From positions 1 through 59,257 of IMG/VR virus record IMGVR_UViG_3300046169_000050: 59,257 nucleotides of DNA. One strand, given 5' to 3'. This stretch comes from a virus. Lineage: Duplodnaviria > Caudoviricetes. Positions 1-35,855 of the stretch are shown here, piece by piece; positions within the stretch are counted from its first letter, which is position 1, and every line of letters starts with the position of its first letter. Both the position numbers and the translations under genes were made by a program. The notes beneath the pieces are model-generated. The model was not told where the DNA came from, ran no database searches, and was given only the letters and a program-made list of their open reading frames with translations.

Positions 1-3000
1 TCGATGTCGCTGCCTCTTTGAGTGCAGCTTGCACCTGTGGCTCACCAAACAGCCCCACTTCCTTTTCGAAATCGTTCTGGAACTCGTCGACCTTTCTAGC
101 CGCCTGAGCAACCATGCCCAATCGTCCGTCTTTTCCGCCCTGCTGTGACCGGACATAGAACATGTCGGCGATCTCGTTACCGGCGTACGCGCGCATGACG
201 CCGTCTGCCGTCATAAGTACTTTCAGGATAGGCTTTACGCGTTTGTTGTACTTAAGGTCTCGGATACTCTTGCGCCAGTGTGCTGCCAGAGCCTCGCCGT
301 CTCTTTTAACGATGACTTCTTCTAGCTCCCTTACCATCGCTTTCCGAACAAAAGATGAACCGTTTTCTTTATTGGCTGGGTCTGCGTCTTTTAGCGGGCG
401 CTTTCTAGACTCCATAACAGAGTCCATGTACGTCTCGAAGTCCTGCGGTATCGTCCTGAAGTCAAAGCGGTCAGCTGCGCTACGCGCTGTTCGGCGCATA
501 GATCGATAAAGCGAACGAATTTTGTCGGCGAGAGCCTTAAAGTGTCTATCAGTTAAGCTTCTAGCTTTACGCTTCGCGTAGCGTTTACTCGCCCACTTGG
601 CGACATTGTCTGCATACCATTCTTCAAAGGCGAGTTCTTTGTCATCCTTGTATGCATTGAGGTACCGACTATGCATGGGGTCACTTTCAAATGCTTTTAG
701 TAAGCGTGTGTACAACGCCCTGTTCTCTAACGCAGTGCCAAGCTCCAACTTAAATAGGGCATGACCTAGCTCATGAGAAAGTACTAAAGCATCTTGTAGT
801 GAATTGCCGCTTTCTCTGATCAGGATCATGGGTGTGCCATCGGATTGCACCCACATACGGCCTCGAAATTTGTCCGACATAGCCTTTTTAACAAGCTCGC
901 GCGACTGGTAATCTGGGATCGCTTGCTCGAGTGCTTCGGGAGACAGTTTTGCTAGAGCTTGAATGTTGTAAAACTTAGGCTTCACCGGAAGCTTAAGAGC
1001 GCCAACCAAATCTTCTATGAACGCCCTGACGTCCGCGTCTATGATCCCCAGTATTTCTGGACCAGACTCTAAATTCCCGGTAGCGGGAGCTGTACCAGCG
1101 CGGCGATCAGGAGCGATGTCGTCACGGGGGTCGCCCATCATCTGCTCGACTTCGTTCTCACCTGCTTGCTGCTCAACTTCAGTAGGATCAAACTCGCTGC
1201 TTCGGCGCTCTACATCGAGGCCAAGCTCGTCTCCGAACCGTCTCTGTATTGCGTCTGCTTGCTCGTCTGTCGTTACGTCCTGCCTAAACGCAATACGGTT
1301 ATCGTCGTAGCGTTTACCTTCGGCAGTAACGTCGTAGACGACCATCGTGTCTGTATCGTTAGGGATGGTCTGCTCGGTCCTTAGCAGTTCCTTCAGACCA
1401 ACGACCTTGCCGTCCAGTATTGTTGCAGGGACATTCATCGAGTCAGGGATCTGATTGCCTACCTCGAAGAACGACTGGCCTCCGATCTGAACCTGATAGC
1501 CTTCAAGCTGTAGGTCAGCGAGTATCTCTTGCAGACCGCGCTGAGCTGCAAGTCTGGGTGTGCCGCCCTCGAATCCAGTGCCTTCTCTTGCGTCAACTAA
1601 CCGCTGCCCAGCGCGAGTCAGATCTACCAAGTTGACTTTGCTCGTTGTGCCATCTGGAGCCACAACCTCTACGGACGATCCGCGTGCGAATTTACTCTTC
1701 TTCGCTTTGGCGACCGCCCTAGGTAAGAACTCACTAAACGGAACCCGAACCTCGCCATCTTGGTCGCGCATGCGAATCAACGACTCAAAGTCGTCTCGTA
1801 TGACAGAGAAGCCATCACCCGTCTGCTCAATGGTAACAAGCGAGTTAGGGTTGGCGCGCTGCTGCTGTACTGCCTCGCGTAGAGCGGCCTCACTGATCCG
1901 CCCGAACTTAGGGTCAGCAAAGTCTGTAGGGCCAAACTCATTGATGTACTCTTGACGAGCTTGGTCGGTGTTATCGAATGTCTGGTTGGGGTCAGCCTTA
2001 GCTTGATAGGTACGAACTACCGTACGCTCTTCTGCCAGCTCACCTGAGTCGAGCATCTCCTGAAGCGTGTCCATTGACTCATCGTCGAGCATGTCTCGAA
2101 CGACTGGTCCCTGCTCTTGATCAAAGCGGGCTTTGCGCTCTTCGAGTGCCTTCTCGACAGTCGTTAGACGTACGTCTCCGCCATCTGGAGCCAGCCCCTT
2201 TGCGGATTCATACGCGTTGGTTAAATTATCCTGCGTCGTAACTTCTTCTGATATTACGTTGCCGTCCTTGTCGACAGCTTGGACTACGGTATCAGCCTCA
2301 GCAGCAGCTTTGGGCGAGCTATATCCAAGAGCAGCGGCCAACACTTCGTTCGACGCACGACTCGAAACAACATCGCGAACAACCTGCCTACTCGTAGAAA
2401 CTATAGTGCCTTGACCGGGGACATACGCCGCGAAGGCTGGTGTGCCGTCAACCGTGATCTGACGGACCTTATTGTCAGGCAGGTCGTACTTACGTTCGTT
2501 AGCCGCCCAAACAGCCTGCTTGGTACTAGACTCGTCAACCATTGCGCGAAGCTGGGCGTCTAGGTCGCTCTGTGCCTCACGAGTTGTATTGCCCGTCATC
2601 GTATCGCCGTACTGCTCACGGGTGATGTCGTTGTCTACTCGCTGCCCCTGTGCTCTATCCAGCAGGTCGCGCGCTTTAGCGGTGACACTTGCAGCTGTGT
2701 CTAACGCACTATTAGCTGCTCCGGGCACACGTTCTGCGGTAGTAACCAAACCTGCACCAGCGCCACCAGCTGCCGCACCCCCAAAAAACCCAACAAAGGC
2801 GGCCTCGGCGAGACGCATCTTTGCGTCTTCCTTCGTGAATGTGTCGTCAAGCGAGGCCCGGTTGAGTACCGAAATACCTTCTTGGGCCAGTTCAGTTCCT
2901 GCCTCAAGAGGGCCACTGCGTACCACCGTGTTAGCTACGTCGTCGGCAAGCTGGCCAAAGTAACTCTCTTTCTTGGTAGCGCGCTTTTTCGCTACGTCAC

Positions 3001-3739
3001 CAATCAGACGATATATAGCGATCTCACTACCCGCACCGATCGCTGCTTGAACCGTACCTAGCGCAGCAGCTCTCTGAGCTTGCTCGGAGCTTAATTCTTT
3101 GCCACTGTCTAACGCTTCGCTTAAGTTACTACCAGATATCGGAGCGTATTCAGCAGCAAATGCGCCTGCAAAGGCTCCGCCTTCAGTGCTCCGCTTACGT
3201 GCCTGCTGATAAGCGGCCCCGTATATGCGATCCGCTAATTCTTTCTCTGCAGCTGTCGCTGTACCTGCCGCAGCTCGCTTCATAGAGTCTTCAACAACGC
3301 GCTCTGCTGTTTTCTTAGCAGCCCCTTTCAGAGCGAACCGTGCGCCTAGTGCGCCTACGCCTGCGCCGGTTATAGAAGTAATCGCAGAAGGTACGACCTG
3401 ACCAGTCCCCTTGGACGCTTGCGCAAGGAAGCCACCAAAAGTTGGGTTTTCTACAAACTCGCTAAATGTTTCTAGGTCGGCCAGCGGTGCAGCAGCCAAC
3501 TCTTCGCGGACTAGTGCGCGACGTACGTTTTGCTCTGCGGCTTCTTGATCGCCAGTAAGCGTATTACCTAATGCTTTGAAGTACTCTAAGTCTGCGGCAA
3601 GCCCTTCTGCTCCAGACTGAACGCCCGCACCAAAGATTTCACCGAGACCCTGTCTGGCAGGTGATGCTCTTTCGCCCTCAGTTAAATCAGCCGGTGCTGG
3701 ACCGCTGTTGAGGAAATCTTGAAACAGCTCATCGGACAT
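1..3739 (-). CDS. Giant internal virion/ejection (polyvalent-type) protein, N-terminal part; continues across the window junction (about 1799 aa in total)
   Basis: ATG at 3739 (MSDELFQDFLNSG...). It is absent from the ORF track because no stop occurs before the edge. It reads ...VQAALKEAATS-K-ATSELSPLAQKVRQFLDK... across 1/59257 into the 511-aa ORF. Contains HELGH (761-775) and EEWYAD (608-625). Last of four ejection-type genes. Confidence 0.8.
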   Translation of the reverse strand, partial: MSDELFQDFLNSGPAPADLTEGERASPARQGLGEIFGAGVQSGAEGLAADLEYFKALGNTLTGDQEAAEQNVRRALVREELAAAPLADLETFSEFVENPTFGGFLAQASKGTGQVVPSAITSITGAGVGALGARFALKGAAKKTAERVVEDSMKRAAAGTATAAEKELADRIYGAAYQQARKRSTEGGAFAGAFAAEYAPISGSNLSEALDSGKELSSEQAQRAAALGTVQAAIGAGSEIAIYRLIGDVAKKRATKKESYFGQLADDVANTVVRSGPLEAGTELAQEGISVLNRASLDDTFTKEDAKMRLAEAAFVGFFGGAAAGGAGAGLVTTAERVPGAANSALDTAASVTAKARDLLDRAQGQRVDNDITREQYGDTMTGNTTREAQSDLDAQLRAMVDESSTKQAVWAANERKYDLPDNKVRQITVDGTPAFAAYVPGQGTIVSTSRQVVRDVVSSRASNEVLAAALGYSSPKAAAEADTVVQAVDKDGNVISEEVTTQDNLTNAYESAKGLAPDGGDVRLTTVEKALEERKARFDQEQGPVVRDMLDDESMDTLQEMLDSGELAEERTVVRTYQAKADPNQTFDNTDQARQEYINEFGPTDFADPKFGRISEAALREAVQQQRANPNSLVTIEQTGDGFSVIRDDFESLIRMRDQDGEVRVPFSEFLPRAVAKAKKSKFARGSSVEVVAPDGTTSKVNLVDLTRAGQRLVDAREGTGFEGGTPRLAAQRGLQEILADLQLEGYQVQIGGQSFFEVGNQIPDSMNVPATILDGKVVGLKELLRTEQTIPNDTDTMVVYDVTAEGKRYDDNRIAFRQDVTTDEQADAIQRRFGDELGLDVERRSSEFDPTEVEQQAGENEVEQMMGDPRDDIAPDRRAGTAPATGNLESGPEILGIIDADVRAFIEDLVGALKLPVKPKFYNIQALAKLSPEALEQAIPDYQSRELVKKAMSDKFRGRMWVQSDGTPMILIRESGNSLQDALVLSHELGHALFKLELGTALENRALYTRLLKAFESDPMHSRYLNAYKDDKELAFEEWYADNVAKWASKRYAKRKARSLTDRHFKALADKIRSLYRSMRRTARSAADRFDFRTIPQDFETYMDSVMESRKRPLKDADPANKENGSSFVRKAMVRELEEVIVKRDGEALAAHWRKSIRDLKYNKRVKPILKVLMTADGVMRAYAGNEIADMFYVRSQQGGKDGRLGMVAQAARKVDEFQNDFEKEVGLFGEPQVQAALKEAATS

Positions 3740-9106: not shown

Positions 9107-10252
9107 TTACTGCGCAGTGTCGAGACAGATCACGCCAAAGTCTTGGACTGATCCGCTAATGTCGCTGTTGTACTTAGGCTTGCGAAGGCCGAAGATCTTA
9201 CCGATTGAGATACCAGCTTGGTTCTCGTAGTCGAACGTATCTTCAACGATATCGGGGAGACCGATATCAGCCATTGCGAGTGACTGAGCACCACAGAACA
9301 GAGCACGTGCGCCGCTTACGTCTGCGTCTGCGCCCCACTTGTAACCAGCCGCGCCAGCGTTTGAAGAAGTACCAGAGGTAGCGCCTTCAGTGCTGAATAC
9401 GTGACGGAACTCGTGGATCATGACGCCATCTACCATCAAGCTCGCAGAACCTGAGAACAGAGAGTTAGATGCGCCGCGAACGCCAGCGTTACGTACGTTA
9501 GCCAAGAAGTCCGAATCGAGCTTCAGGTTGGCCATTTGCTGTGGAGTAACGAACATGTGGAAGATCTCGTCGTTACCAGCGCCTCGGATACCACGGATGT
9601 AGTTGTCCTTAGCGTATGCCTTCAGCTCAACAATGTGCTTGTAGCCAAGCTTGTCAGTAGCTGTAACAGCAGTAGTGTCGCCAGCAGCAATGCTGGTGCC
9701 TGAGATACGACGGTGACGATCGCCAGTAGGCGCAGATACGTCAGATGCGAACTCAAGGTCAACCAACTCGTGACCTGCAGATGCAGAAGTAGCGCGAAGG
9801 CCACCGTTTGTCTTGTGCGTGTACGCAACACCAGAAAGAGTCAAGAACGAGAGCTGGTCCATACGGTCGGCCATTGCATAAGCAAGTGCGTCGCGAGACT
9901 GCTCACGGAAGTTAACTACAGTCTTCTGGTCAGCCATGCGGCCAGCGATACGGTTAGCGAATCGGAGCTGGTCCAACTCGATAGTGATATCGTAGGCGCG
10001 GAGTGCTTCTTCGTTGCCTTCCAGAGTGTTGTCACCGGTGATACCGTCACCAGTCATGTCAGCAAGCAAGGTGATGTTCGCCTTGGTTCCTTTCTCTGAC
10101 TTAGTGAGTTCAGTTACGCGCTGAACGAGAGCGTTTTGGCCAGTTCCTGCGAACTGGTTAACGAAAGACATGTTGCGTGCAACACGCCAGAAATCCCGTG
10201 ACCAAGTCTGTAACTGGTCTCCGGAAAGCATTCCAAAGTTTGTAAGAGCCAT
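9107..10252 (-). CDS. Major capsid protein, N4-gp56/DUF4043 type
   Basis: 381 aa; ELTKSEKG, GD..LEGNEE.L, RALFCGAQ.LA, DYEN..GISIGKIFGL.KP, DFGVI..DTA motifs; strongly biased codons. Confidence 0.9.
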   Translation of the reverse strand: MALTNFGMLSGDQLQTWSRDFWRVARNMSFVNQFAGTGQNALVQRVTELTKSEKGTKANITLLADMTGDGITGDNTLEGNEEALRAYDITIELDQLRFANRIAGRMADQKTVVNFREQSRDALAYAMADRMDQLSFLTLSGVAYTHKTNGGLRATSASAGHELVDLEFASDVSAPTGDRHRRISGTSIAAGDTTAVTATDKLGYKHIVELKAYAKDNYIRGIRGAGNDEIFHMFVTPQQMANLKLDSDFLANVRNAGVRGASNSLFSGSASLMVDGVMIHEFRHVFSTEGATSGTSSNAGAAGYKWGADADVSGARALFCGAQSLAMADIGLPDIVEDTFDYENQAGISIGKIFGLRKPKYNSDISGSVQDFGVICLDTAQ

Positions 10253-10468
10253 GATGGGCCTCCATTAAATTGACAAATAAACACATGCAGCTGTGCTGCA
10301 ACTATTAGCCGACTTAAAGGAGCGGCTAATCCGTTTCCTCGTATCGTGAGGCGACGAACTAGCGCTTTGTTTACGAGGCGCGACCTCGGCTTTTTTTACG
10401 CCTCTGCAGGCGAGATTCGTTTTTAACGCCTACGGGGCGATCAACTATCGTGCTGACGGACGAATGTA
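10253..10468 (-). ncRNA. Candidate structured 5' leader RNA of the capsid gene
   Basis: Non-coding, seven predicted hairpins, two repeated structural units, anti-SD loop (see findings). Confidence 0.6.
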
Positions 10469-10474
10469 CTTCGT

Positions 10475-10503
10475 ATATTAGCGTCACTAATATTAAGACG
10501 CAA
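10475..10503 (-). promoter_or_regulatory. Sigma70-like capsid promoter overlapped by a 17-bp operator
   Basis: TTGCGT-17 bp-TAATAT on minus strand; operator TATTAGCGTCACTAATA at 10476-10492. Confidence 0.7.
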
Positions 10504-10506
10504 GCA

Positions 10507-10764
10507 CTACTTCTTCCTGCGTCTTCCTGACGCTGTAACGGCGTGTTTGATCTTGGCGGGGCCAGTCTTACGCCGGGCAGATGACGCCTTTTCTGCTTTC
10601 GTCATTTTCGCTGCAACGGCTTTTGGCCTGCACGAAGGATATGGGCGCTTGCTCTTCCCTTTCGCGGACTTACGACCACAAGGTTTGCCGGTCTTTACGT
10701 CGACCCAGCCCTCTTTAAACCATTTTCTAAGGGCAGCACCCTTCTTACTTTTTCTTACGGCCAC
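10507..10764 (-). CDS. Small basic protein (DUF5872-like)
   Basis: L.KWFKE.WVDVKTGKPCGR...RPYP.CRP motif; very K/R-rich. Confidence 0.75.
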   Translation of the reverse strand: MAVRKSKKGAALRKWFKEGWVDVKTGKPCGRKSAKGKSKRPYPSCRPKAVAAKMTKAEKASSARRKTGPAKIKHAVTASGRRRKK

Positions 10765-10903
10765 TTTTGTTACCCCAATTCTTAGCGCCTACTTTTCGGC
10801 ACTTGGCAACTGCACCTGACGCGTACGCCGACGGCCAAACCTTGTAACGGGCCTTGACCTTCTTAGCGCATGCGTCGCTTGCCTTCTTCTTTTTTGCTGG
10901 CAT
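10745..10903 (-). CDS. 52-aa basic protein (not in ORF track)
   Basis: MPAKKKKASDACAKKVKARYKVWPSAYASGAVAKCRKVGAKNWGNKSGRKKK; TGATG coupling to the upstream stop. Confidence 0.75.
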   Translation of the reverse strand: MPAKKKKASDACAKKVKARYKVWPSAYASGAVAKCRKVGAKNWGNKSGRKKK

Positions 10904-11103
10904 CACTTACTACTCACTGGTTGAGTCGTCATGAAGCGCAAAACCACGATACCGCTGGCCATTGCACACCCGATCATTGCCTGAACTGCTGGGTTTGCCG
11001 GTAAAAACCCGATAAACCCCTGCAATACTGAGAGAACTGCGATCGCAACGCCGTATTGCACGGTTCGTGACTTAAATGCCTGTTTCACGTGTGCTGGGAT
11101 CAT
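10903..11103 (-). CDS. 66-aa two-TM membrane protein (holin-like)
   Basis: Two hydrophobic segments; LR..TTQPVS C-terminus; ATGA coupling to the upstream gene. Confidence 0.55.
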   Translation of the reverse strand: MIPAHVKQAFKSRTVQYGVAIAVLSVLQGFIGFLPANPAVQAMIGCAMASGIVVLRFMTTQPVSSK

Positions 11104-11231
11104 TTTTTAGCCCTCTTCGCCTTTAGGCGCTTAAGACGAGCAAGTTCAGCCGCCTCAATCTTAGTTGGCTTACGTGTCATCTTAGGGTTGTAAGCCGCAC
11201 CACGTGGCGGGACTTTCTTTTTAACTGTCAT
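11100..11231 (-). CDS. 43-aa basic protein (not in ORF track)
   Basis: MTVKKKVPPRGAAYNPKMTRKPTKIEAAELARLKRLKAKRAKK; GAGG RBS; stop overlaps next start. Confidence 0.65.
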   Translation of the reverse strand: MTVKKKVPPRGAAYNPKMTRKPTKIEAAELARLKRLKAKRAKK

Positions 11232-11232
11232 A

Positions 11233-11322
11233 TCAATACCTCTTCTTTCGTCGAGTTGTGGGCTTTTTCTTTGGCTTCTTTTTGCTGCTTTTGCTGCAGC
11301 TGCAAGGTTTACCGTTATGCAT
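11233..11322 (-). CDS. 29-aa basic peptide
   Basis: MHNGKPCSCSKSSKKKPKKKPTTRRKKRY; GGAG RBS; starts 1 nt after previous stop. Confidence 0.6.
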   Translation of the reverse strand: MHNGKPCSCSKSSKKKPKKKPTTRRKKRY

Positions 11323-11323
11323 G

Positions 11324-11434
11324 CTAGTAACTCCGAGCTTTGCGTGCTGGGGCTTTGGCTTTAGACCGTTTCTTACACTTACCGGCCTTCTTACAGGCTG
11401 CTTTGGTTGTACAGGTTGCACAGGGCTTAAACAT
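11324..11434 (-). CDS. 36-aa Cys/Lys-rich peptide (not in ORF track)
   Basis: MFKPCATCTTKAACKKAGKCKKRSKAKAPARKARSY; strong TAAGGAG RBS. Confidence 0.7.
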   Translation of the reverse strand: MFKPCATCTTKAACKKAGKCKKRSKAKAPARKARSY

Positions 11435-11444
11435 GATTAACTCC

Positions 11445-11711
11445 TTACCATTTTTTGCACGACCAGTACCGTGCAGTTAGTTTGCTAGGTGGACTTGTGT
11501 CACATCGATGCCGTGCCCTGAACGACTTGCGTCGTCCGGGCTGACTTTTCTTGATAGTCATCTTGGCGTCGCCAAAACGAATGGTTTTTGTCTTATCACC
11601 CTGCTTTGCAACAACTACGAACTTTTTGGTCGGGTGACTCGGCGTTCGTTTCGGCTTGTTGTAGCCACTTACGCCTGCTCGCGCTAACTTCGGGTCTTTC
11701 TTGGCTGGCAT
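11445..11711 (-). CDS. Small basic protein (DUF6321-like)
   Basis: K.IRFGD..M.IKK..P.RRKSFRARH.C.....KL.ARYWSC..W motif. Confidence 0.8.
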   Translation of the reverse strand: MPAKKDPKLARAGVSGYNKPKRTPSHPTKKFVVVAKQGDKTKTIRFGDAKMTIKKSQPGRRKSFRARHRCDTSPPSKLTARYWSCKKW

Positions 11712-12724
11712 TACAGGATATCTCCGCGTAATCGTCTCAGCGTTGCTTCCGGCAGTGCATTGAACTCGTCTTCCGTCATGGAAGCGATGTCTAAGGCTTT
11801 CTCTCCACGTGCAGTCGACGACTCACCCGGCATTTCGGGCGGTTGTGACTCTGCGGCTTTAAGTTTTCGGCTAACTTCGGCTCTTTTCTTAGCAACTTCG
11901 TCTACGCGGGGCGCAGTTTCGCCAGAAAGCGATGGGGTAGCAGCTGCTTCGGTCATATCGACCAAGTCATACTCGCGAAGCACAAATTTTGCGGCCTTTG
12001 TAAGCGCTGCAACGGGGTTTTCGCCCTTCATAATAAACGCATCGCGCAAATCGATGACTTCTTGGGTGTAGCCTTCGTTGTATTGATCGGAATTTCTGTC
12101 AAAAACCGGGAAATTGTCCTCTAATTCCGATGCAGCTTGCTGCAAAGCAGTCGCTTGCTGGCTTTGAGACACGGATTCGCCGATTTTTGAGCTAAATTCG
12201 TACTCTAACTGCGCCCTTTCCGCCGTTCGGATCTCTTTTCGGAGAGCTGCAGCCTTCTGAGCCTCGCCATCGAGCACCAAATTCTGATATTCGACTTCTT
12301 TGGAGTCAAAATCGTAGGCTTCTGGTGCTTCGCCCGGCTCCTGCTTCTGCGCTCGTAGCTCGTCGAGCTGCTTTTCCAGCGCTTTCTGCTTGGCCAACAC
12401 CTCGTCAAGGCGCGACTTAGGCACCATGTGCTTGCGTGGCTCTTCAGGAGCAGGTTCTTCTGCTGCTTCTACTGCTTCTGTAACCGGCGTTTGGTCGCCG
12501 AGAGAAGGTGAATCGTCTTCTGCCACAGGTTCTTCAGCTTCCGCAACAGCTTCAACTTCAGTTTCTTCAGCTTCCGCAACAACTTCTTCATCTTCTGGCT
12601 CCTCCACAGGCTCTTCGCCCAATCCAAAGTTCAAATCAAGCTGCTCTGCAGCTGAGTCTTCAGGTGCATCTGATCCGGGCATGCGGTCATACACCAATTC
12701 GTCTTTCTGCTCTTCGTTAGACAT
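11711..12724 (-). CDS. Capsid scaffolding protein
   Basis: Acidic N-terminus, VPKSRLDEV, coiled coil, C-terminal MTEDEF.ALP...RLRGD; between portal and capsid genes. Confidence 0.8.
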   Translation of the reverse strand: MSNEEQKDELVYDRMPGSDAPEDSAAEQLDLNFGLGEEPVEEPEDEEVVAEAEETEVEAVAEAEEPVAEDDSPSLGDQTPVTEAVEAAEEPAPEEPRKHMVPKSRLDEVLAKQKALEKQLDELRAQKQEPGEAPEAYDFDSKEVEYQNLVLDGEAQKAAALRKEIRTAERAQLEYEFSSKIGESVSQSQQATALQQAASELEDNFPVFDRNSDQYNEGYTQEVIDLRDAFIMKGENPVAALTKAAKFVLREYDLVDMTEAAATPSLSGETAPRVDEVAKKRAEVSRKLKAAESQPPEMPGESSTARGEKALDIASMTEDEFNALPEATLRRLRGDIL

Positions 12725-12735
12725 CTCTCAATCTC

Positions 12736-14889
12736 CTATTGATTCTCAGGGGTCCGCATATTCGGTATGTTCACCTGTTGCGGCTGTTGCTGCTTTGCAG
12801 CGGTTTGCATTGCTGTAGCAGCAATTCGGGTTGCAGCAGCAGTTTCCTGCTGCGATCTGCGCGTCTCGTTGGTGAGATCAGACAGTTCACGGCGCAGCTC
12901 TAGCTCACGGTTCTTCATCTCAAGCTGCGATTGAAGTTCTGCCATACGCATCTGAGGCTGAACCTCAGCTGTGTCTTGTACTTTGGCAATGTTGACCGCC
13001 GCTTCAGACTGTAGTTTGCGTACTTCAGCTTCGAGCTTGGCAATTTCAAGCTGCAGCGTCTGCATGCCCATCTGCTGCTGCATCGCCGCTATCTGCTGCT
13101 GCTCTGGTGTCTTCTCTACGCCTGTCATCATGCGGATACGCTTGGCAAGCTCGCCCTTCTTGGCAAGATGGGAGTACTCGATAATGGCGTCATCTGGGAT
13201 GGCCACGCCGACCTGACGCAAGTTAAGCGCCTCTGCGAACTGCACTTCATCAAACGAGTCACGAGCAGGCGCTGTGGCGATGACTACATCGTACTCACCC
13301 AGCGTTAGGTCATTTACGATCTGGCCCTGCGGCGTCATCTGGTTGATAACCATCTCTTCGCGAGGCTGAAGCGGGTCGCTTTCATCAGTAATCATGATGA
13401 TGCGCTGCTCTGTGTAGAACGTCTGGATGAGATCGAGGATGCGCTCAGCCAAGTACTGTCGAGTCTTCCGCAGATTATCGAGCGGCACCTGAATCATGAT
13501 CGCACCACGATTCTGCTTAGCCTGAATAGCTACACCTGATACTTCAGCACTGTCAGTGCCGAGCATCGAATCGTTGATACCAGAGATCGCCTTGATGTTA
13601 AGCGCAGCTTTTTGGCTGATGCGGTCTAGGCCGGTGGGGATCTGGTTAGGCTGAATCTTCTGCGGAGGCTGTGAACCACGGTTGTACTCAAGCACGAGTC
13701 CTGTTTCTGCACCGTGCTCCTCTAAATCATCAGCTTGCATCCCGACTAGTGATCCACTCTCCACGACCCATCCGCTGTTGGCGGTGGTGTTAACGATGTG
13801 GAGTTCTTGGCTCGCTATCTTGTTGAGCTGCTCCTGTGGACTAAGGAGATTGCGGACCATGCCAAAAGGACGACCCCTACGGAAGTAAGCGAAATAAGGA
13901 ACAATAGTGAACCCATTGTAAGGAGACCAATCGTCGTGAAGAACAACGTGATCGCACGTAACGGTCCAACGAACCTTGCGCTTAACCTTTGAAATAATGT
14001 TGAGGCCATACTCCTTGGCGAACTTCTTAGCTTTTCTTTCGTTCCATGCTTCTGGTACATCTCTCTGGTCTCCTGTATCAGGGTCCACGAAACAATCTAC
14101 CCGATGCATGCGACGGTGTTGGCGCTCGATGACCCGCAAAGCCCTAATATTGCGGTACTCATCATCTCCGGGTGGTCCTGCACCCAGATAATCGTCAGCA
14201 GAAGACAGATCGCCGAAGCGGTTCTCTTCATACTCGATGGAGTCCCGGCCCATACCCGCGCCGTTTTCCGCAATAAACTGCAGCTGCTCAGCCTTCTTCT
14301 TGCCGTACAGCTCTTCAATCTCATCGAGGGTCATCCATTTGGTCTCAAAGACCTCGTTCCACGATTCGGGGTTCTGGTCCTTGGCATCGGGGTCGATGAG
14401 GATGTCTAGTGGATCTTTAGCCGTGATTCGTATTTCACCTTCCACGTGGTCGGAAAAGTCCATACGACAGTCAAAGTATCCGCGCCCATCGAGAATGAGG
14501 CCGTCGCTAAACACTTGCTGCTCGATCCAGTCGAGCTTGTTGTTGTCTGCAATCTGCAGGTACAACTTGGTCAGCGTGTGTGCGACTTCGGAGTCGCCGT
14601 TTCGGCGTGGTTTAAACTGCACATCTGCACGGCGCGTGGACTGTTCTCCAAGGACCGTGTTCACTGTTGGTAACACAGTGTTGATGGTCAGTGCAGGACG
14701 CCCCTCAGCTTCAAGCTGAGCAATATCATCGGGATCCCACTGGTCACCGCGATAGAAAGCATCGCAGCGTTTTGCGTTTTCAATATAGTCGAGGTGCCCA
14801 TTGTCGCGGGCACGCACGTAGCGATCCCATTGGCCTGAAGCGATTTCTGCCTCTTCACCGGGGGAAAGTCGTTTCTTTGGGTTGGCCAT
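12736..14889 (-). CDS. Portal protein (P22/N4-like, with Gln-rich C-terminal barrel)
   Basis: FY.GDQW, RP.LTIN, G.VR.L..PQ..LNK, SG.AI..KQ motifs; follows TerL. Confidence 0.9.
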   Translation of the reverse strand: MANPKKRLSPGEEAEIASGQWDRYVRARDNGHLDYIENAKRCDAFYRGDQWDPDDIAQLEAEGRPALTINTVLPTVNTVLGEQSTRRADVQFKPRRNGDSEVAHTLTKLYLQIADNNKLDWIEQQVFSDGLILDGRGYFDCRMDFSDHVEGEIRITAKDPLDILIDPDAKDQNPESWNEVFETKWMTLDEIEELYGKKKAEQLQFIAENGAGMGRDSIEYEENRFGDLSSADDYLGAGPPGDDEYRNIRALRVIERQHRRMHRVDCFVDPDTGDQRDVPEAWNERKAKKFAKEYGLNIISKVKRKVRWTVTCDHVVLHDDWSPYNGFTIVPYFAYFRRGRPFGMVRNLLSPQEQLNKIASQELHIVNTTANSGWVVESGSLVGMQADDLEEHGAETGLVLEYNRGSQPPQKIQPNQIPTGLDRISQKAALNIKAISGINDSMLGTDSAEVSGVAIQAKQNRGAIMIQVPLDNLRKTRQYLAERILDLIQTFYTEQRIIMITDESDPLQPREEMVINQMTPQGQIVNDLTLGEYDVVIATAPARDSFDEVQFAEALNLRQVGVAIPDDAIIEYSHLAKKGELAKRIRMMTGVEKTPEQQQIAAMQQQMGMQTLQLEIAKLEAEVRKLQSEAAVNIAKVQDTAEVQPQMRMAELQSQLEMKNRELELRRELSDLTNETRRSQQETAAATRIAATAMQTAAKQQQPQQVNIPNMRTPENQ

Positions 14890-34686: not shown

Positions 34687-34715
34687 TTATTAACATCGTG
34701 CCTGCAAACGGAGAA

Positions 34716-34734
34716 AATCCCTCTCTCTCCGCCA
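34716..34734 (+). other. attP core resembling the 3' end of a tRNA-Ser
   Basis: AATCCCTCTCTCTCCGCCA = T-arm 3' strand, acceptor strand, discriminator G and CCA; immediately upstream of int. Confidence 0.8.
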
Positions 34735-34805
34735 GTTCTCGCAAACCCTTGCAGTACAAGGCTTTCCGGGGGTATGCTGTTTCTTTTGAGACACAAGAGG
34801 GACAG

Positions 34806-35855
34806 TTGGCCACTATAATAAAGAGAGACGGTAAGTTCTACGTCCGCGTTCGCAAAGCAAACTTCAAACCCGAAAACCGCACCTTCGACACACGTACTGC
34901 AGCCAAACAATGGGCGCTTCAAACAGAAGCAGCTATGGCCAATGGATCGTGGATCTCGGACCGTGAAGCACGTATCACGAATCTTGATTCAATATTTCGC
35001 CGGTACATCGCCGAAATTCACGGGGCAAAGCCATTCGGCAAAAGTAAACTCGCAACAGTAAGAAGCACGGCACGAAGAGTCGGACACTTGCGTCTTTCAG
35101 ATCTGTCTCCCGCCTTTGTTTTATCCTATGCAAAACAGCGTGCCAGCGAAATCGCCCCCTCTACCCTGAACCAAGAACTAACCTACTTCGCGCAAGCCAT
35201 CGATGTAGCACGGACCTTGTGGAACGCTCCACTAAAAGACAACCCTGTGCGCGCAGCAATCGGCGTCTTATCTCAGGTAGATGTAGTACAAGGCAGTAGA
35301 AAACGTAACAGGAGACCCACGGACCACGAACTACAAACCCTGCTTAACCTAGCCAAAGGCAGTTGGATCAGGCCCATGATCGAGATAGCTGTCGAAACAG
35401 GGTTACGTGAGTCAGAAATTCACGCACTCAAATGGTCAGACGTGGACTTTGACCGTGGTACGTTGCTCATTCGAGACCGAAAAAACCCTAAGCAAAAGAT
35501 CGGAAACGACCAGCTAATACCGCTTTTACCGGCGTCGAGAGAGGCGCTCCTACGTGAAAAGCAGCAAAGTAAACAGGGTGGTAGGGTGTTCGAGGACGTT
35601 CTCCGCGCCGCCAGTATTAGCGATAAATTTGCCAAACTAAGAAAAAAGGCTGAGATCTACGACCTACGGTTTCACGACCTCCGGCACGAAGCAATTAGTC
35701 GAATGTTCGAAAAAGGAATGACTATTCCAGAGGTAGCAGCTATCAGCGGGCACAAGACGTGGACCAGCCTAAAGCGTTATACGCAGCTAAGTCCTAGATC
35801 TCTGTCGACTGCGTTCGCAAAGCAGCCTGCATCTGAGAGACCACCTCAGTTGTAG
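34806..35855 (+). CDS. int: Tyrosine integrase
   Basis: Start TTG 34806 after GAGGGA; TGLR..EI, RK, FHDLRHEA, SGHK, KRYT catalytic residues. Confidence 0.95.
   Translation: MATIIKRDGKFYVRVRKANFKPENRTFDTRTAAKQWALQTEAAMANGSWISDREARITNLDSIFRRYIAEIHGAKPFGKSKLATVRSTARRVGHLRLSDLSPAFVLSYAKQRASEIAPSTLNQELTYFAQAIDVARTLWNAPLKDNPVRAAIGVLSQVDVVQGSRKRNRRPTDHELQTLLNLAKGSWIRPMIEIAVETGLRESEIHALKWSDVDFDRGTLLIRDRKNPKQKIGNDQLIPLLPASREALLREKQQSKQGGRVFEDVLRAASISDKFAKLRKKAEIYDLRFHDLRHEAISRMFEKGMTIPEVAAISGHKTWTSLKRYTQLSPRSLSTAFAKQPASERPPQL

Follow-up and report, generated by a model that had tools for sequence, protein, structure and literature searches.

The interval between the scaffold and major capsid genes of the tailed phage sequence analyzed here (59,257 nt, referred to in its entirety as the window) is occupied by seven coupled micro-genes on the minus strand (positions 10507-11711), six of which encode Lys/Arg-rich proteins and one of which encodes a membrane protein. 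Comparisons with related sequences indicate that all seven are genuine, conserved genes subject to purifying selection. The same comparisons mark the interval as a hypervariable cassette island that occupies the 3' end of the portal-scaffold transcription unit and turns over between near-identical phages. The most likely reading, to which we assign a probability of about one half, is that the basic proteins are virion-associated, DNA-binding cargo analogous to the internal proteins of phage T4 or DarA/Hdf of phage P1.

Organization of the island

The island lies between two recognizable head genes, all features being encoded on the minus strand. Upstream, the scaffolding protein gene (11711..12724) encodes 337 aa that match the head scaffolding family phrog_8865 (E = 1.5e-6), and its stop codon overlaps the ATG of the first micro-gene by 1 nt. 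This gene, p88 (11445..11711), encodes an 88-aa basic protein that anchors the island and is followed by p36 (11324..11434; 36 aa with four Cys in the arrangement CxxC-x5-C-x5-C and a Lys-rich tail), p29 (11233..11322; 29 aa, Lys-rich), p43 (11100..11231; a 43-aa basic cassette), p66TM (10903..11103; 66 aa with two hydrophobic segments), p52 (10745..10903; a very highly conserved module that contains a Cys pair and the motif WPSAYASG), and p85 (10507..10764; an 85-aa basic protein with a GTG start). The successive gaps are 10, 1, 1, -4, -1, and -20 nt. The downstream border is formed by a conserved promoter-like element and structured capsid leader (10253..10506), followed by the major capsid protein gene (9107..10252; Pfam Phage_capsid_3, E = 4.1e-48), relatives of which are encoded in at least 597 IMG/VR stretches. 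A sigma-70 scan detected no promoter-like site within the island, and no Rfam family was detected in positions 10150-11800.

An earlier note on this sequence had proposed six Lys/Arg-rich ORFs of 88, 36, 29, 43, 52, and 85 aa plus a 66-aa membrane protein, and both their positions and their coupling are borne out. The six basic proteins have isoelectric points of 10.4-11.7, consist of Lys and Arg to 30-45%, and together carry a net charge of +106. Most were said to contain Cys or His, and this is the case: Cys is present in five of the six, three of which also contain His, and p43 has neither. Only six of the 570 ORFs of at least 29 aa in the six frames of the window comprise at least 20% Lys, and five of these six are in the island interval. 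Same-strand ORFs tile the interval completely (100%), whereas 1000 first-order Markov resamples averaged 0.57 and did not exceed 0.97. This tiling and the concentration of Lys-rich ORFs go beyond chance. A default ORF minimum of 60 aa would miss p36, p29, p43, and p52.

All seven island genes have relatives, and substitutions are mostly synonymous where divergence permits testing. The comparative checks suggested at the outset were dN/dS and synteny. Purifying selection was detected on p88, p36, p66TM, p52, and p85 among related loci, and of the 64 such loci with a scaffold match, 58 carry p88 after the scaffold gene. The pN/pS ratios were 0.00-0.09 for p88 (seven comparisons), 0.00-0.08 for p66TM (97-100% identical in six loci), 0-0.07 for p52, and 0.02-0.03 for p85 (four comparisons; the fifth, with locus L007, comprised only two changes).

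Contigs from seawater libraries labelled transcriptomic cover p88 at positions 11406-11689 (X1, with no differences, probably DNA) and 11405-11632 (X2). The capsid leader is likewise covered by contigs in four runs labelled transcriptomic; RNA libraries may contain DNA, contigs give no levels, and stretches without coverage carry no weight.

The p36, p29, p43, and p66TM genes

A TAAGGAG ribosome-binding site (RBS) had been noticed before position 11434 and is real; it is located 6 nt upstream of the p36 start and shares the TAA stop codon of p88, the ATG of which has a GGAG 10 nt upstream. The p29 ATG is located 1 nt past the p36 stop with a GGAG 8 nt upstream. It had further been claimed that a 62-aa ORF in this region is better explained as two genes (11324-11434 and 11233-11322). 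In the stretch shared by the p36 and 62-aa frames, the changes across loci L007, L009, and L011 comprise 10 synonymous and 1 non-synonymous when read in the p36 frame, versus 1 synonymous and 9 non-synonymous when read in the 62-aa frame. Moreover, the GTG start of the 62-aa ORF is missing in L007, and relatives carry p36-like genes without p29-like genes and vice versa. Collectively, these observations uphold the claim and indicate that the 62-aa ORF is an artefact of p36 and p29 (36 + 29 aa), with p29 corresponding to its 3' part.

A degenerate DNA signature of p36 was identified in 86 IMG/VR stretches, and the 80 loci analyzed contained 46 distinct ORFs, all of 24-51 aa, among which the signature residues are conserved by construction because the search pattern fixes them. 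The p29-like family, which is characterized by the N-terminus MH[ND]GKPC, comprised eight distinct forms in 10 loci and included genes that have their own RBS and occur without p36 in several loci (L012, L025, L058). Substitution data for p29 itself are thin, comprising four synonymous and two non-synonymous changes in L009.

When compared to L007, L009, and L011, p43 is an exact, gene-sized insertion of 132 nt with GAAGAGG-N(7-8)-ATG at both junctions. No match to p43 was detected in the 80 related loci, in isolate phages (tblastn), or in IMG/VR by a degenerate pattern. Screening of a large protein collection revealed seven clusters of p43 homologs with an invariant core, two of which are fused to another island module.

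The start of p66TM overlaps p43 in an ATGA, and Kyte-Doolittle hydropathy peaks in windows starting at residues 15-19 and 39-40. When compared to holins and other small phage membrane proteins, the protein has the two hydrophobic segments but only a weak match to DUF7940 (E = 0.054) and no PHROG match, and no endolysin gene adjoins p66TM.

Turnover and distribution of the micro-genes

The gap between the scaffold and capsid genes varies from 268 to 2580 nt across 65 related regions, and four island layouts were identified among relatives with 97-100% identical capsid proteins. In six of the 65 regions the island is absent and the capsid leader is present; these contigs are fragments (13-37% complete for the five rated), and the search for p88 in five of these island-less relatives, which detected none, is to be read with this incompleteness in mind. 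Three of the island-less regions are included in the 13-sequence alignment of the leader, for which RNAalifold predicted 44 pairs, 22 of them with compensatory changes.

The micro-gene families are also distributed well beyond this lineage. Among 79 IMG/VR loci with the p36 signature, p88 was encoded on the same strand within ~2.5 kb in 46, a 131-aa family in 27, a 54-aa family in 26, p85 in 15, and p52 in 10, with five of the 79 lacking any of these families. The portal and scaffold of this phage are present in only 16 of the 79 loci and absent from 63, and in seven of 10 such loci, the neighbors located on the same strand up to 5 kb away have tail-fibre, tail, virion structural, terminase, or lysis functions. 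Island modules are also fused in single polypeptides (P0009, P0278/P0279, P0282, P0285, and a cyanophage protein described below). Based on this gene content, the micro-gene families co-occur in unrelated phage backbones within late or structural operons. Matching genes of the p52, p85, and p88 types are adjacent to one another, and unannotated, in the isolate Roseobacter phage CRP-901.

The p88 family

The p88 protein matches the PHROG family of unknown function phrog_7595 over its full length (E = 2e-26; residues 2-88 aligned to positions 2-96 of the 96-position profile), and island variants of p88 match this profile with E values as low as 4.3e-43. A profile search (E <= 1e-3) revealed 2335 representative clusters in the family. 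Relatives were identified in spindle-shaped viruses of Nitrosopumilaceae and, by weak structural matches, in giant viruses.

Several observations place p88 at the edge of the Tlr6F/DUF5754 family of polinton-like viruses, virophages, and giant viruses, the members of which are likewise small and basic. The DUF5754 profile (PF19058) scored 14.8 bits against p88 (E = 0.029), which is below the Pfam gathering cut-off of 27.4, and it matched only two of 82 aligned p88 relatives at E <= 0.01 (best 0.0032), so that p88 and its close relatives stay under the Pfam threshold. One Atlas cluster scores 0.95, and 16% of the members of this cluster carry PF19058. Structural searches of BFVD returned weak matches to proteins of Tunisvirus, Chloriridovirus, and CeV-01B (E = 0.13-0.95, TM = 0.45-0.59). 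A link between p88 and Tlr6F/DUF5754 is plausible. Passages in three sources (PMC4642659, PMC12220804, bioRxiv 10.1101/2022.07.28.501842) describe Tlr6F as a small basic viral protein of unknown function that is also present in 'some poorly characterized phages.' According to a passage in the last of these, a few Tlr6F peptides were detected in purified PgVV particles, below the significance threshold. The literature on DUF5872, DUF5754, and DUF7940 yielded listing-type mentions only.

The AF2 model of p88 had a pLDDT of 84.4; an earlier model based on 35 close sequences was poor (pLDDT 59.8) and was discarded. A Foldseek search of the PDB with the model returned nothing at E <= 0.001 (best 1.2), and VIA-align against 48,161 chains returned a single, insignificant row (Z = 2.2) for the SSV1 A100 protein. 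Searches of PDB sequences with the p88 profile, p52, and p85 returned no meaningful match. Predictions of a complex between the scaffold and p88 (alignments A8 and A3) scored 0.00 in two runs without controls, a result that weighs neither way on binding.

The p88 domain is also part of long proteins. A Pfam scan identified LysM in six of 33 such proteins, two of which also had a weak ART-PolyVal match. A PHROG scan of 21 long proteins identified phrog_7348 (2564 columns, labelled endolysin) in six and phrog_22602 (virion structural protein) in one, and in 16 of the 21 the p88 domain reaches the last residue of the protein. One island variant of p88 aligns to phrog_220 (labelled 'minor head protein and DNA pilot'; columns 535-617, E = 4.7e-8), and relatives in BFVD are named XkdF (283 aa) and ChaB (371 aa).

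The p52 and p85 modules

The p52 gene starts with ATG, with an alternative GTG at 10906 that would yield 53 aa, and overlaps p66TM in a TGATG stop/start. Its product matches columns 263-308 of the 450 columns of phrog_727, which correspond to the WPSAYASG module (E = 2.2e-17). Homologs were identified in 2052 clusters (28-91 aa; E <= 1e-3), and identities among the 120 matches listed are 76-100% over the aligned part. The Cys pair is retained in 31 of 32 aligned sequences. Conservation of p52 is well beyond that needed for a generic polycation, suggesting a specific partner. A homology suspected on visual comparison, between p52 and the N-terminal half of the common 131-aa island family, was dropped (hhalign probability 7%).

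The GTG start of p85 is kept in all five close relatives, and the gene overlaps p52 by 20 nt. The protein scored 25.7 bits against DUF5872 (PF19197), as compared to a cut-off of 27.5, with the match limited to profile positions 49-90 of 116, and relatives with 59-63% identity to p85 pass the cut-off with 55.9-85.9 bits. This suggests that p85 carries the C-terminal module of DUF5872 (W..W.D...G.PCGR...YP.CRP) rather than the whole domain. The protein also matches phrog_23735 (E = 5.7e-10).

Modules of the p85 type (DUF5872-like) and the p52 type are fused in the 207-aa protein QBP06184 of cyanophage S-B68 (phrog_727, E = 2e-47), homologs of which were identified in 365 phage records. In this protein, the two modules form one polypeptide in the reverse order, whereas the window encodes them as two separate genes. 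Residues 18-52 of QBP06184 are 60% identical (over 35 residues) to residues 63-97 of the S-B68 major capsid protein; in contrast, p52 in the window comprises the module alone, without such an N-terminal, capsid-like segment. The GenBank note for QBP06184 reads 'structural protein ... cyanophage only T4-like GC0119,' and a passage of PMC3037559 traces such T4-GC 'structural' labels to virion mass spectrometry of S-SM1, S-PM2, and Syn9.

Putative function of the basic proteins

We infer that the basic proteins would be products of late expression that enter the virion, bind the packaged DNA or lie next to it, and exit together with the genome when a cell is infected. On this view, the rapid turnover of cassettes by gain, loss, and shuffling would represent adaptation to hosts or host defenses, including a possible anti-defense role. 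Several lines of evidence argue for this cargo role. The island overlaps the end of the scaffold gene by 1 nt and has no internal sigma-70-like promoter; the p88 domain is fused C-terminally to large virion-type proteins; modules of the p85 and p52 types are fused in a cyanophage protein annotated as structural; the basic families co-occur across backbones near structural genes; the observed cassette turnover is typical of accessory or cargo loci; and Tlr6F peptides have been seen, below threshold, in PgVV particles.

Known systems provide precedents for such cargo. The internal proteins IPI, IPII, and IPIII of T4 are small basic proteins whose genes lie among head genes; they are packaged in the head and enter the host along with the DNA. 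The T4 internal-protein locus varies between close relatives, and at least one of its members counters a host nuclease. T4 internal proteins carry a cleaved N-terminal capsid-targeting peptide, and neither a capsid-targeting signal nor a cleavage site was recognized, short of a motif search, in the proteins of the window. The T4 proteins share no sequence similarity with the island proteins, the packaging of which is putative. In P1, DarA/Hdf are described as bound to the inner capsid surface, touching DNA, missing from emptied heads, and having a role in counter-defense (PMC12810830); these proteins are much larger and belong to unrelated families, so that only the mechanism would be comparable to that of the island proteins. 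The polyvalent proteins and MuF-linked cargo of phages, as described in a passage of PMC5512222, consist of many small domains strung together that are delivered with DNA and rapidly shuffled. Some p88-bearing proteins resemble these in their LysM and weak ART-PolyVal matches, whereas the modules in the window are mostly free-standing micro-genes. The main text of PMC5512222 contains no mention of LysM, Tlr, 'lysine-rich,' or cyanophage. A literature search on lysine-rich internal phage proteins returned nothing on these families, and the word 'proteome' is absent from the cobavirus paper.

Other observations count against the cargo role. The island is dispensable, with the leader alone being present in six of 65 regions; p88 relatives occur in very different particle types; the clusters adjoin tail-fibre rather than head genes in other lineages; p52 is conserved beyond the needs of a generic polycation; and scaffold acidity does not track island charge as a carrier model predicts. 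The earlier proposal of basic proteins packaged in the head agrees with the indirect evidence as a whole, including the position of the island, the p88 fusions, and the cyanophage fusion; packaging and DNA condensation are putative. One set of proteins contributes a charge of +106 versus 118,514 DNA phosphates, making bulk protamine-like neutralization implausible unless hundreds of copies are present.

An alternative is that the basic proteins are made late and remain unpackaged, and that they bind RNA, ribosomes, or host DNA as ribosomal mimics, translation modulators, or nucleoid remodelers, including by action on the capsid leader. We consider this unlikely, although p52 and p88 are strongly conserved across viruses of many hosts, which would fit a universal, specific target, and the adjoining leader is a real structured RNA. 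Viral Thx genes have reportedly been found, and one p52 homolog (P0163; 82 aa, known from one contig of 1569 bases) is continuous with an upstream-read peptide that passes the Pfam cut-off for ribosomal protein Thx (35.6 versus 29.7 bits); however, no Thx-like gene was identified in the window or in the related loci examined. Virus-encoded small ribosomal proteins do exist, and bS21 and similar proteins in passages of PMC6375957, the main text of which contains no mention of Thx, resemble the island proteins in being tiny, basic, and from aquatic phages, without a family match to them. Ribosomal mimicry is argued against by the lack of a match between any of the six proteins and a ribosomal-protein family (Pfam, E <= 1; NCBIfam, E <= 0.1) and by fusion partners that are of the virion type rather than translation factors. 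The suggested action on the leader is unsupported because the leader also exists without the island in the six regions noted above, and 63 of the 79 loci with the gene set lack the portal and scaffold of this phage.

It is also conceivable, though decidedly unlikely, that the proteins assist assembly or packaging and are lost from the mature particle, acting as counter-ions or chaperones for the acidic scaffold or as aids to scaffold exit or DNA entry. The close translational linkage between p88 and the scaffold gene would fit such a role, as would the p88 relative named XkdF (a prohead protease/scaffold-type name) and the scaffold itself, which has a net charge of -47 and an extremely acidic N-terminal third (-32 in the first 110 residues). 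However, scaffolds of island-less relatives are equally or more acidic (-55 to -65). Charge compensation between scaffold and island was not supported: scaffold charges ranged from -42 to -65 with or without an island, and the correlation (Spearman rho = +0.37) had the sign opposite to the model, in a table that is imperfect because duplicate islands had been dropped from it. The association of the gene set with tail-fibre genes in other lineages and the structural annotation of the cyanophage fusion, which implies retention in the particle, also argue against a transient helper.

The presence of acidic, membrane, and larger genes in the islands of relatives raises the question of whether the interval is a landing pad for unrelated morons that share no function (the membrane protein might act in superinfection exclusion, for example, and assorted peptides in host takeover), with the basic composition being partly a side effect of Lys/Arg codons that provide an RBS for the next cassette. 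Cassette ends such as AAG-AGG do supply the Shine-Dalgarno sequence of the next gene, and among 36 distinct small basic ORFs of the islands, 14 have a terminal Tyr preceded by K/R/G codons. Nevertheless, the same basic families occur together across unrelated backbones and fused in single polypeptides, which argues for a shared function, and their conserved cores are not low-complexity sequence; we regard the landing-pad explanation as improbable. That any of the short ORFs is spurious is highly improbable, since the scant substitution data for p29 and the absence of p43 from all 80 related loci are set against purifying selection on the five other genes, independent homologs of p43 and p36, p29-like genes with their own RBS in relatives, and an ORF tiling that speaks against chance.

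Implications

Few viral proteins without a known function are as widespread as the Tlr6F-like and DUF5872 proteins, which have not yet been placed in any process. Here, the p88 family is found at the head of a shuffling row of micro-genes behind the scaffold gene in a very abundant marine phage lineage, with several island genes being below the size of routine gene calling. Genomic context and fusions lead to a testable hypothesis of virion cargo on DNA, and the micro-gene families are also present in cultured, non-pathogenic phage-host pairs, with carriers including Roseobacter phage CRP-901, Puniceispirillum phage HMO-2011, Lentibacter phage ICBM2, and T4-like cyanophages. A broader and rather doubtful extension is that the mobile Lys-rich kit (p88, which is Tlr6F-like and whose fold resembles no solved structure, DUF5872 modules, the WPSAYASG module, the four-Cys p36, and others) may be a genome-coating set shared among aquatic viruses, including tailed phages of many hosts, archaeal spindle-shaped viruses, and, via Tlr6F/DUF5872, polinton-like and giant viruses. 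Such a set would be packed and delivered with the DNA, its cassettes being freely exchanged as an adaptive layer. If the cargo hypothesis is true, these proteins would add a class of small packaged proteins that are systematically missed by tryptic proteomics and annotation pipelines.

Gene Content and Coding Status of the Island

The minus-strand interval between the scaffold stop and position 10507 had been described as a row of small, strongly basic genes plus one membrane protein gene, and all seven ORFs were recovered there at the positions given: p88, p36, p29, p43, p66TM, p52, and p85, named by length in amino acids. The ATG of p88 overlaps the scaffold stop, successive genes are separated by 10, 1, 1, -4, -1, and -20 nt, and a Shine-Dalgarno-like motif lies upstream of five of the seven starts, the remaining two of which overlap the preceding gene. 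Same-strand ORFs tile the island completely, which occurred in none of 1,000 Markov resamples. The membrane protein p66TM (66 aa) has two hydrophobic segments, while the basic character of the other six was confirmed (pI 10.4–11.7; net charges summing to +106). Just six of 570 six-frame ORFs in the window (≥29 aa) contain ≥20% Lys, and five of these are within the island.

Values of pN/pS were calculated from the window versus related loci, in comparisons that share ancestry and hence are not independent. These values were 0.00–0.09 for p88 (seven comparisons), 0.00–0.08 for p66TM (six), 0–0.07 for p52 (six), and 0.02–0.03 for p85 in four comparisons, with a fifth (locus L007) having two changes only. 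The 62-aa ORF called across the p36 and p29 region had been suspected to comprise two genes. This is correct, since each type is found where the other is missing, p36-like genes in L074, L076, and L077 and p29-like genes in L012, L025, L058, and others (every one with its own ribosome-binding site), and substitutions are specific to frame: relative to three relatives, the p36 frame has 10 synonymous changes and one non-synonymous change, compared to one synonymous and nine non-synonymous when the same nucleotides are read in the 62-aa frame. The GTG start of the 62-aa ORF is also missing in L007.

IMG/VR was searched with a degenerate signature based on the N-terminus of p36; 86 stretches matched, and the 80 loci analyzed yielded 46 distinct ORFs, all of which stop after 24–51 codons. 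A four-Cys core is kept in this family and the Lys-rich tails are variable, where residues fixed in the search pattern are conserved by construction. No p43 was found in any of 80 related loci; it is inserted as precisely one gene-sized unit of 132 nt, flanked at either end by an identical short GAAGAGG-N(7–8)-ATG junction. Its homologs elsewhere form seven clusters with an invariant core, in two of which p43 is fused to another island module. The gene with the thinnest support is p29, the family of which is kept in 10 loci with few informative substitutions.

Among small basic ORFs from the islands of related loci (L007–L086) and the p36 family (L093–L171), 14 of 36 distinct sequences have a C-terminal Tyr, typically as ...K/R-(G)-Y-stop. 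The final codons (AAG AGG, GGT TAT, and similar) also provide the following cassette with its Shine-Dalgarno sequence.

The Phage and Its Lineage

At 59,257 bases, the window comprises an entire IMG/VR virus record (completeness rating 100%), in which no tRNA genes were found. It encodes a P22-type portal (12736–14889; Pfam E = 9e-123), a scaffolding protein (11711–12724), a major capsid protein (9107–10252; Phage_capsid_3, E = 4.1e-48), a large terminase, internal virion proteins, and tail fibers, along with a family A DNA polymerase, a primase, a helicase, and a tyrosine integrase (34698–35855; phrog_1, E = 1.3e-50), the last of which suggests that the lineage is temperate. The closest isolates at the DNA level are Pseudomonas phages KPP25 and phiR18, with similarity confined to part of the capsid gene (64–69% identity); their capsid gene follows almost directly after its preceding gene. 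A capsid relative is encoded in at least 597 of 598 pattern-matched IMG/VR stretches, and the lineage is common in public viromes. The related loci examined here are the best 80 of these at least 597 stretches (capsid identity 84–100%). The first ~100 residues of the scaffold are almost purely Glu, Asp, Ala, Pro, and Val (net -32 over the first 110), and the N-terminus is of this kind in all 44 complete scaffolds of relatives, where scaffold net charge is -42 to -65.

Upstream of the capsid gene lies a conserved element belonging to that gene (10253–10506, minus strand), comprising a promoter-like TTGCGT-17 nt-TAATAT and then a leader of ~200 nt. Several hairpins form in this leader, with compensatory changes in 22 of 44 predicted pairs (13 relatives), and the element matched no Rfam family. 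Within the leader is also a hairpin resembling a terminator (10286–10300, minus strand; TGCAGCACAGCTGCA), with a T-rich run after it, just upstream of the capsid ribosome-binding site.

Hypervariability of the Island

Across 65 regions (the window and 64 loci), the scaffold stop and the capsid start are separated by 268 to 2,580 nt, with six regions (268–322 nt) containing the capsid leader alone. Homologs of p88 were present in 58 of 64 loci with a scaffold match, usually as the first gene. Four layouts were identified among relatives with 97–100% identical capsid protein: that of the window; the same set without p43 (L007, L009, and L011); the set without p36 and p43 and with a different p29-type gene (L012); and a non-Cys 103-aa p88 variant with a 59-aa protein, p66TM, and a 131-aa protein (L008). 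Clustering of all island ORFs yielded 50 clusters, including 22 singletons. Recurrent clusters were mostly basic families (p88, 49 loci; the 131-aa protein, 28; p29-type, 10; an 80-aa repeat protein, 9; p52, 8), and acidic or membrane proteins were a minority of island genes. Modules were found both split and fused: the 131-aa protein combines phrog_17747 and phrog_14910, the halves are separate genes with another gene between them in L074, and protein P0009 is a fusion of phrog_14910 with p88.

Protein Families

The p88 protein belongs to phrog_7595 (E = 2e-26), and 2,335 representative clusters match its profile at E ≤ 1e-3, of which 822 remain at E ≤ 1e-10. Its match to Pfam DUF5754 is weak (14.8 bits; cut-off 27.4), and this domain was detected at E ≤ 0.01 in two of 82 p88 relatives and is carried by 16% of members of one Atlas cluster. 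DUF5754 is described as the Tlr6F protein of polinton-like viruses, virophages, and giant viruses, found also in "some poorly characterized phages" and resembling no known domain according to the same accounts (PMC4642659, PMC12220804). Because the DUF5754 matches are only weak, we file p88 as Tlr6F-like, short of proven membership. A confident AlphaFold2 model (82-row alignment; pLDDT 84.4, pTM 0.69) predicts a short helix, a long beta-hairpin (residues 29–48), and two helices. It matched no solved structure, and its 18 matches in BFVD at E ≤ 0.001 were all its own relatives. In a 35-row alignment, the two Cys positions were occupied by Cys/Cys in six rows, by Lys or Arg with Asn or Asp in 26, and by a single Cys in none. 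The Cys pair is a subclade trait, and this pairing, never with a lone Cys, suggests that the two positions are in contact.

The p85 protein carries the C-terminal module of DUF5872 (25.7 bits, against a cut-off of 27.5, and 55.9–85.9 bits for its relatives), and p52 is the WPSAYASG module of phrog_727. In the range of 28–91 aa, p52 has 2,052 clusters; their identity is very high, and a pair of Cys residues is almost invariant. No curated family matched p36, p29, p43, or p66TM.

Distribution Among Other Phages

Only 16 of 79 IMG/VR loci with the p36 signature share the portal and scaffold of the window phage. Partners in these 79 loci, on the same strand as the p36-type gene and mostly ≤2.5 kb away, were p88 (46 loci), the 131-aa family (27), a 54-aa family (phrog_16028; 26), p85 (15), and p52 (10); five loci had none of these families. 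Same-strand neighbors within 5 kb were tail-fiber, tail-fiber-assembly, tail, "virion structural," terminase, or lysis genes in seven of 10 loci from other lineages, and no informative PHROG was found among neighbors in the other three. A conserved ORF of ~117 aa, with no PHROG match, directly adjoins the p36-type gene ~360 nt upstream in loci of several further phage lineages (L098, L117, L122, L132, and others).

Relatives of p88 were detected by tblastn in 63 isolate or assembled phage records, including roseophages (CRP series, SIO1), pelagiphages, HMO-2011, and phages of marine Synechococcus, Vibrio, Methylophilales, and Flavobacterium. In Roseobacter phage CRP-901 (L004), p52-type, p85-type, 47-aa, and p88-type genes are consecutive, downstream of a large LysM protein gene. 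Three of these small ORFs (54 aa, 3000–3164; 91 aa, 2768–3043; 47 aa, 2644–2787; all minus strand) are conserved yet unannotated in GenBank and sit between gp68 and gp67, the latter a p88 relative labeled "HVA1 family protein." Also among the 63 records are two of Nitrosopumilaceae spindle-shaped viruses (H123 and H124), which encode p88 relatives (49–50% identity over residues 18–88; E = 6e-15 and 2e-15). Archaeal spindle-shaped viruses and tailed phages belong to different virus realms. The three p88-relative contexts inspected were all late or structural regions.

Links to the Virion and Candidate Functions

Three lines, namely p88 fusions, a cyanophage p85 and p52 fusion, and operon position, point to the virion. 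The p88 domain is last in the protein in 16 of 21 long relatives (PHROG scan), and its fusion partners include LysM (6 of 33; Pfam scan), phrog_7348 (6 of 21; PHROG scan), and phrog_22602, "virion structural protein" (1 of 21; PHROG scan). One island p88 variant aligns to an interior segment of phrog_220 (E = 4.7e-8), which is labeled "minor head protein and DNA pilot," and names among BFVD relatives of p88 include XkdF and ChaB. Protein QBP06184 of Synechococcus phage S-B68 (L003, 2485–3108), which has homologs in 365 phage records, combines p85-type and p52-type modules; its record labels it as structural and places it in T4-like gene cluster GC0119. Such T4-GC "structural" labels are described as based on mass spectrometry of virions from three cyanophages (PMC3037559). 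Residues 18–52 of QBP06184 are 60% identical to residues 63–97 of the S-B68 major capsid protein (L089, 2411–3793). The stretch resembles a piece of capsid protein copied in front of Lys-rich modules, as would be expected if QBP06184 inserted into the capsid lattice or docked onto it. In the contexts examined, the micro-genes were always within late or structural operons. For the virophage-like PgVV, Tlr6f is reported to be transcribed, with a few peptides in purified particles, under the significance threshold (bioRxiv 10.1101/2022.07.28.501842).

We consider it about an even chance (~0.5) that the basic proteins are small virion-associated DNA-binding cargo, for which the T4 internal proteins provide an analog. 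A further analog is DarA/Hdf of phage P1, described as lying on the inner capsid surface, contacting DNA, and exiting with it (PMC12810830). Of the earlier proposal of head-packaged, DNA-condensing proteins, packaging agrees with the fusions and structural-operon position; bulk condensation is implausible at fewer than hundreds of copies, given that one protein set offsets <0.1% of the genome's charge, which also counts against the cargo reading. So do the absence of the island from six of 65 regions, an acidic scaffold charge that does not follow island charge, relatives in viruses with very different particles, and the extreme conservation of p52, more suggestive of a specific partner than of generic charge.

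It is unlikely that the proteins instead act inside the cell on RNA or the ribosome, as was alternatively proposed; the best clue is P0163, an 82-aa ORF on a single 1,569-base contig in which a peptide above the Pfam Thx threshold (35.6 bits) runs into a p52-type module and which could be a Thx-like micro-gene of a related island, or a fusion, but no Thx-like gene was found in the window or the related loci examined. Action on the capsid-gene leader failed a co-occurrence test, in that the promoter-like element and leader are present with or without the island and the set occurs in loci without this portal and scaffold.

The component families were already known as uncharacterized DUFs or PHROGs, and variable loci encoding packaged proteins also have precedent. 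What appears to be new is a co-traveling set of mostly unannotated micro-genes led by a Tlr6F-like protein, its position immediately after the scaffold gene in a marine lineage that is abundant, the fusions linking it to virion proteins, and a confident predicted model of p88 that resembles no solved structure. The open-access literature searched yielded no account of a co-traveling set of this kind. If the basic island proteins are virion-associated DNA-binding cargo, the turnover of their cassettes would be consistent with an adaptive accessory layer.
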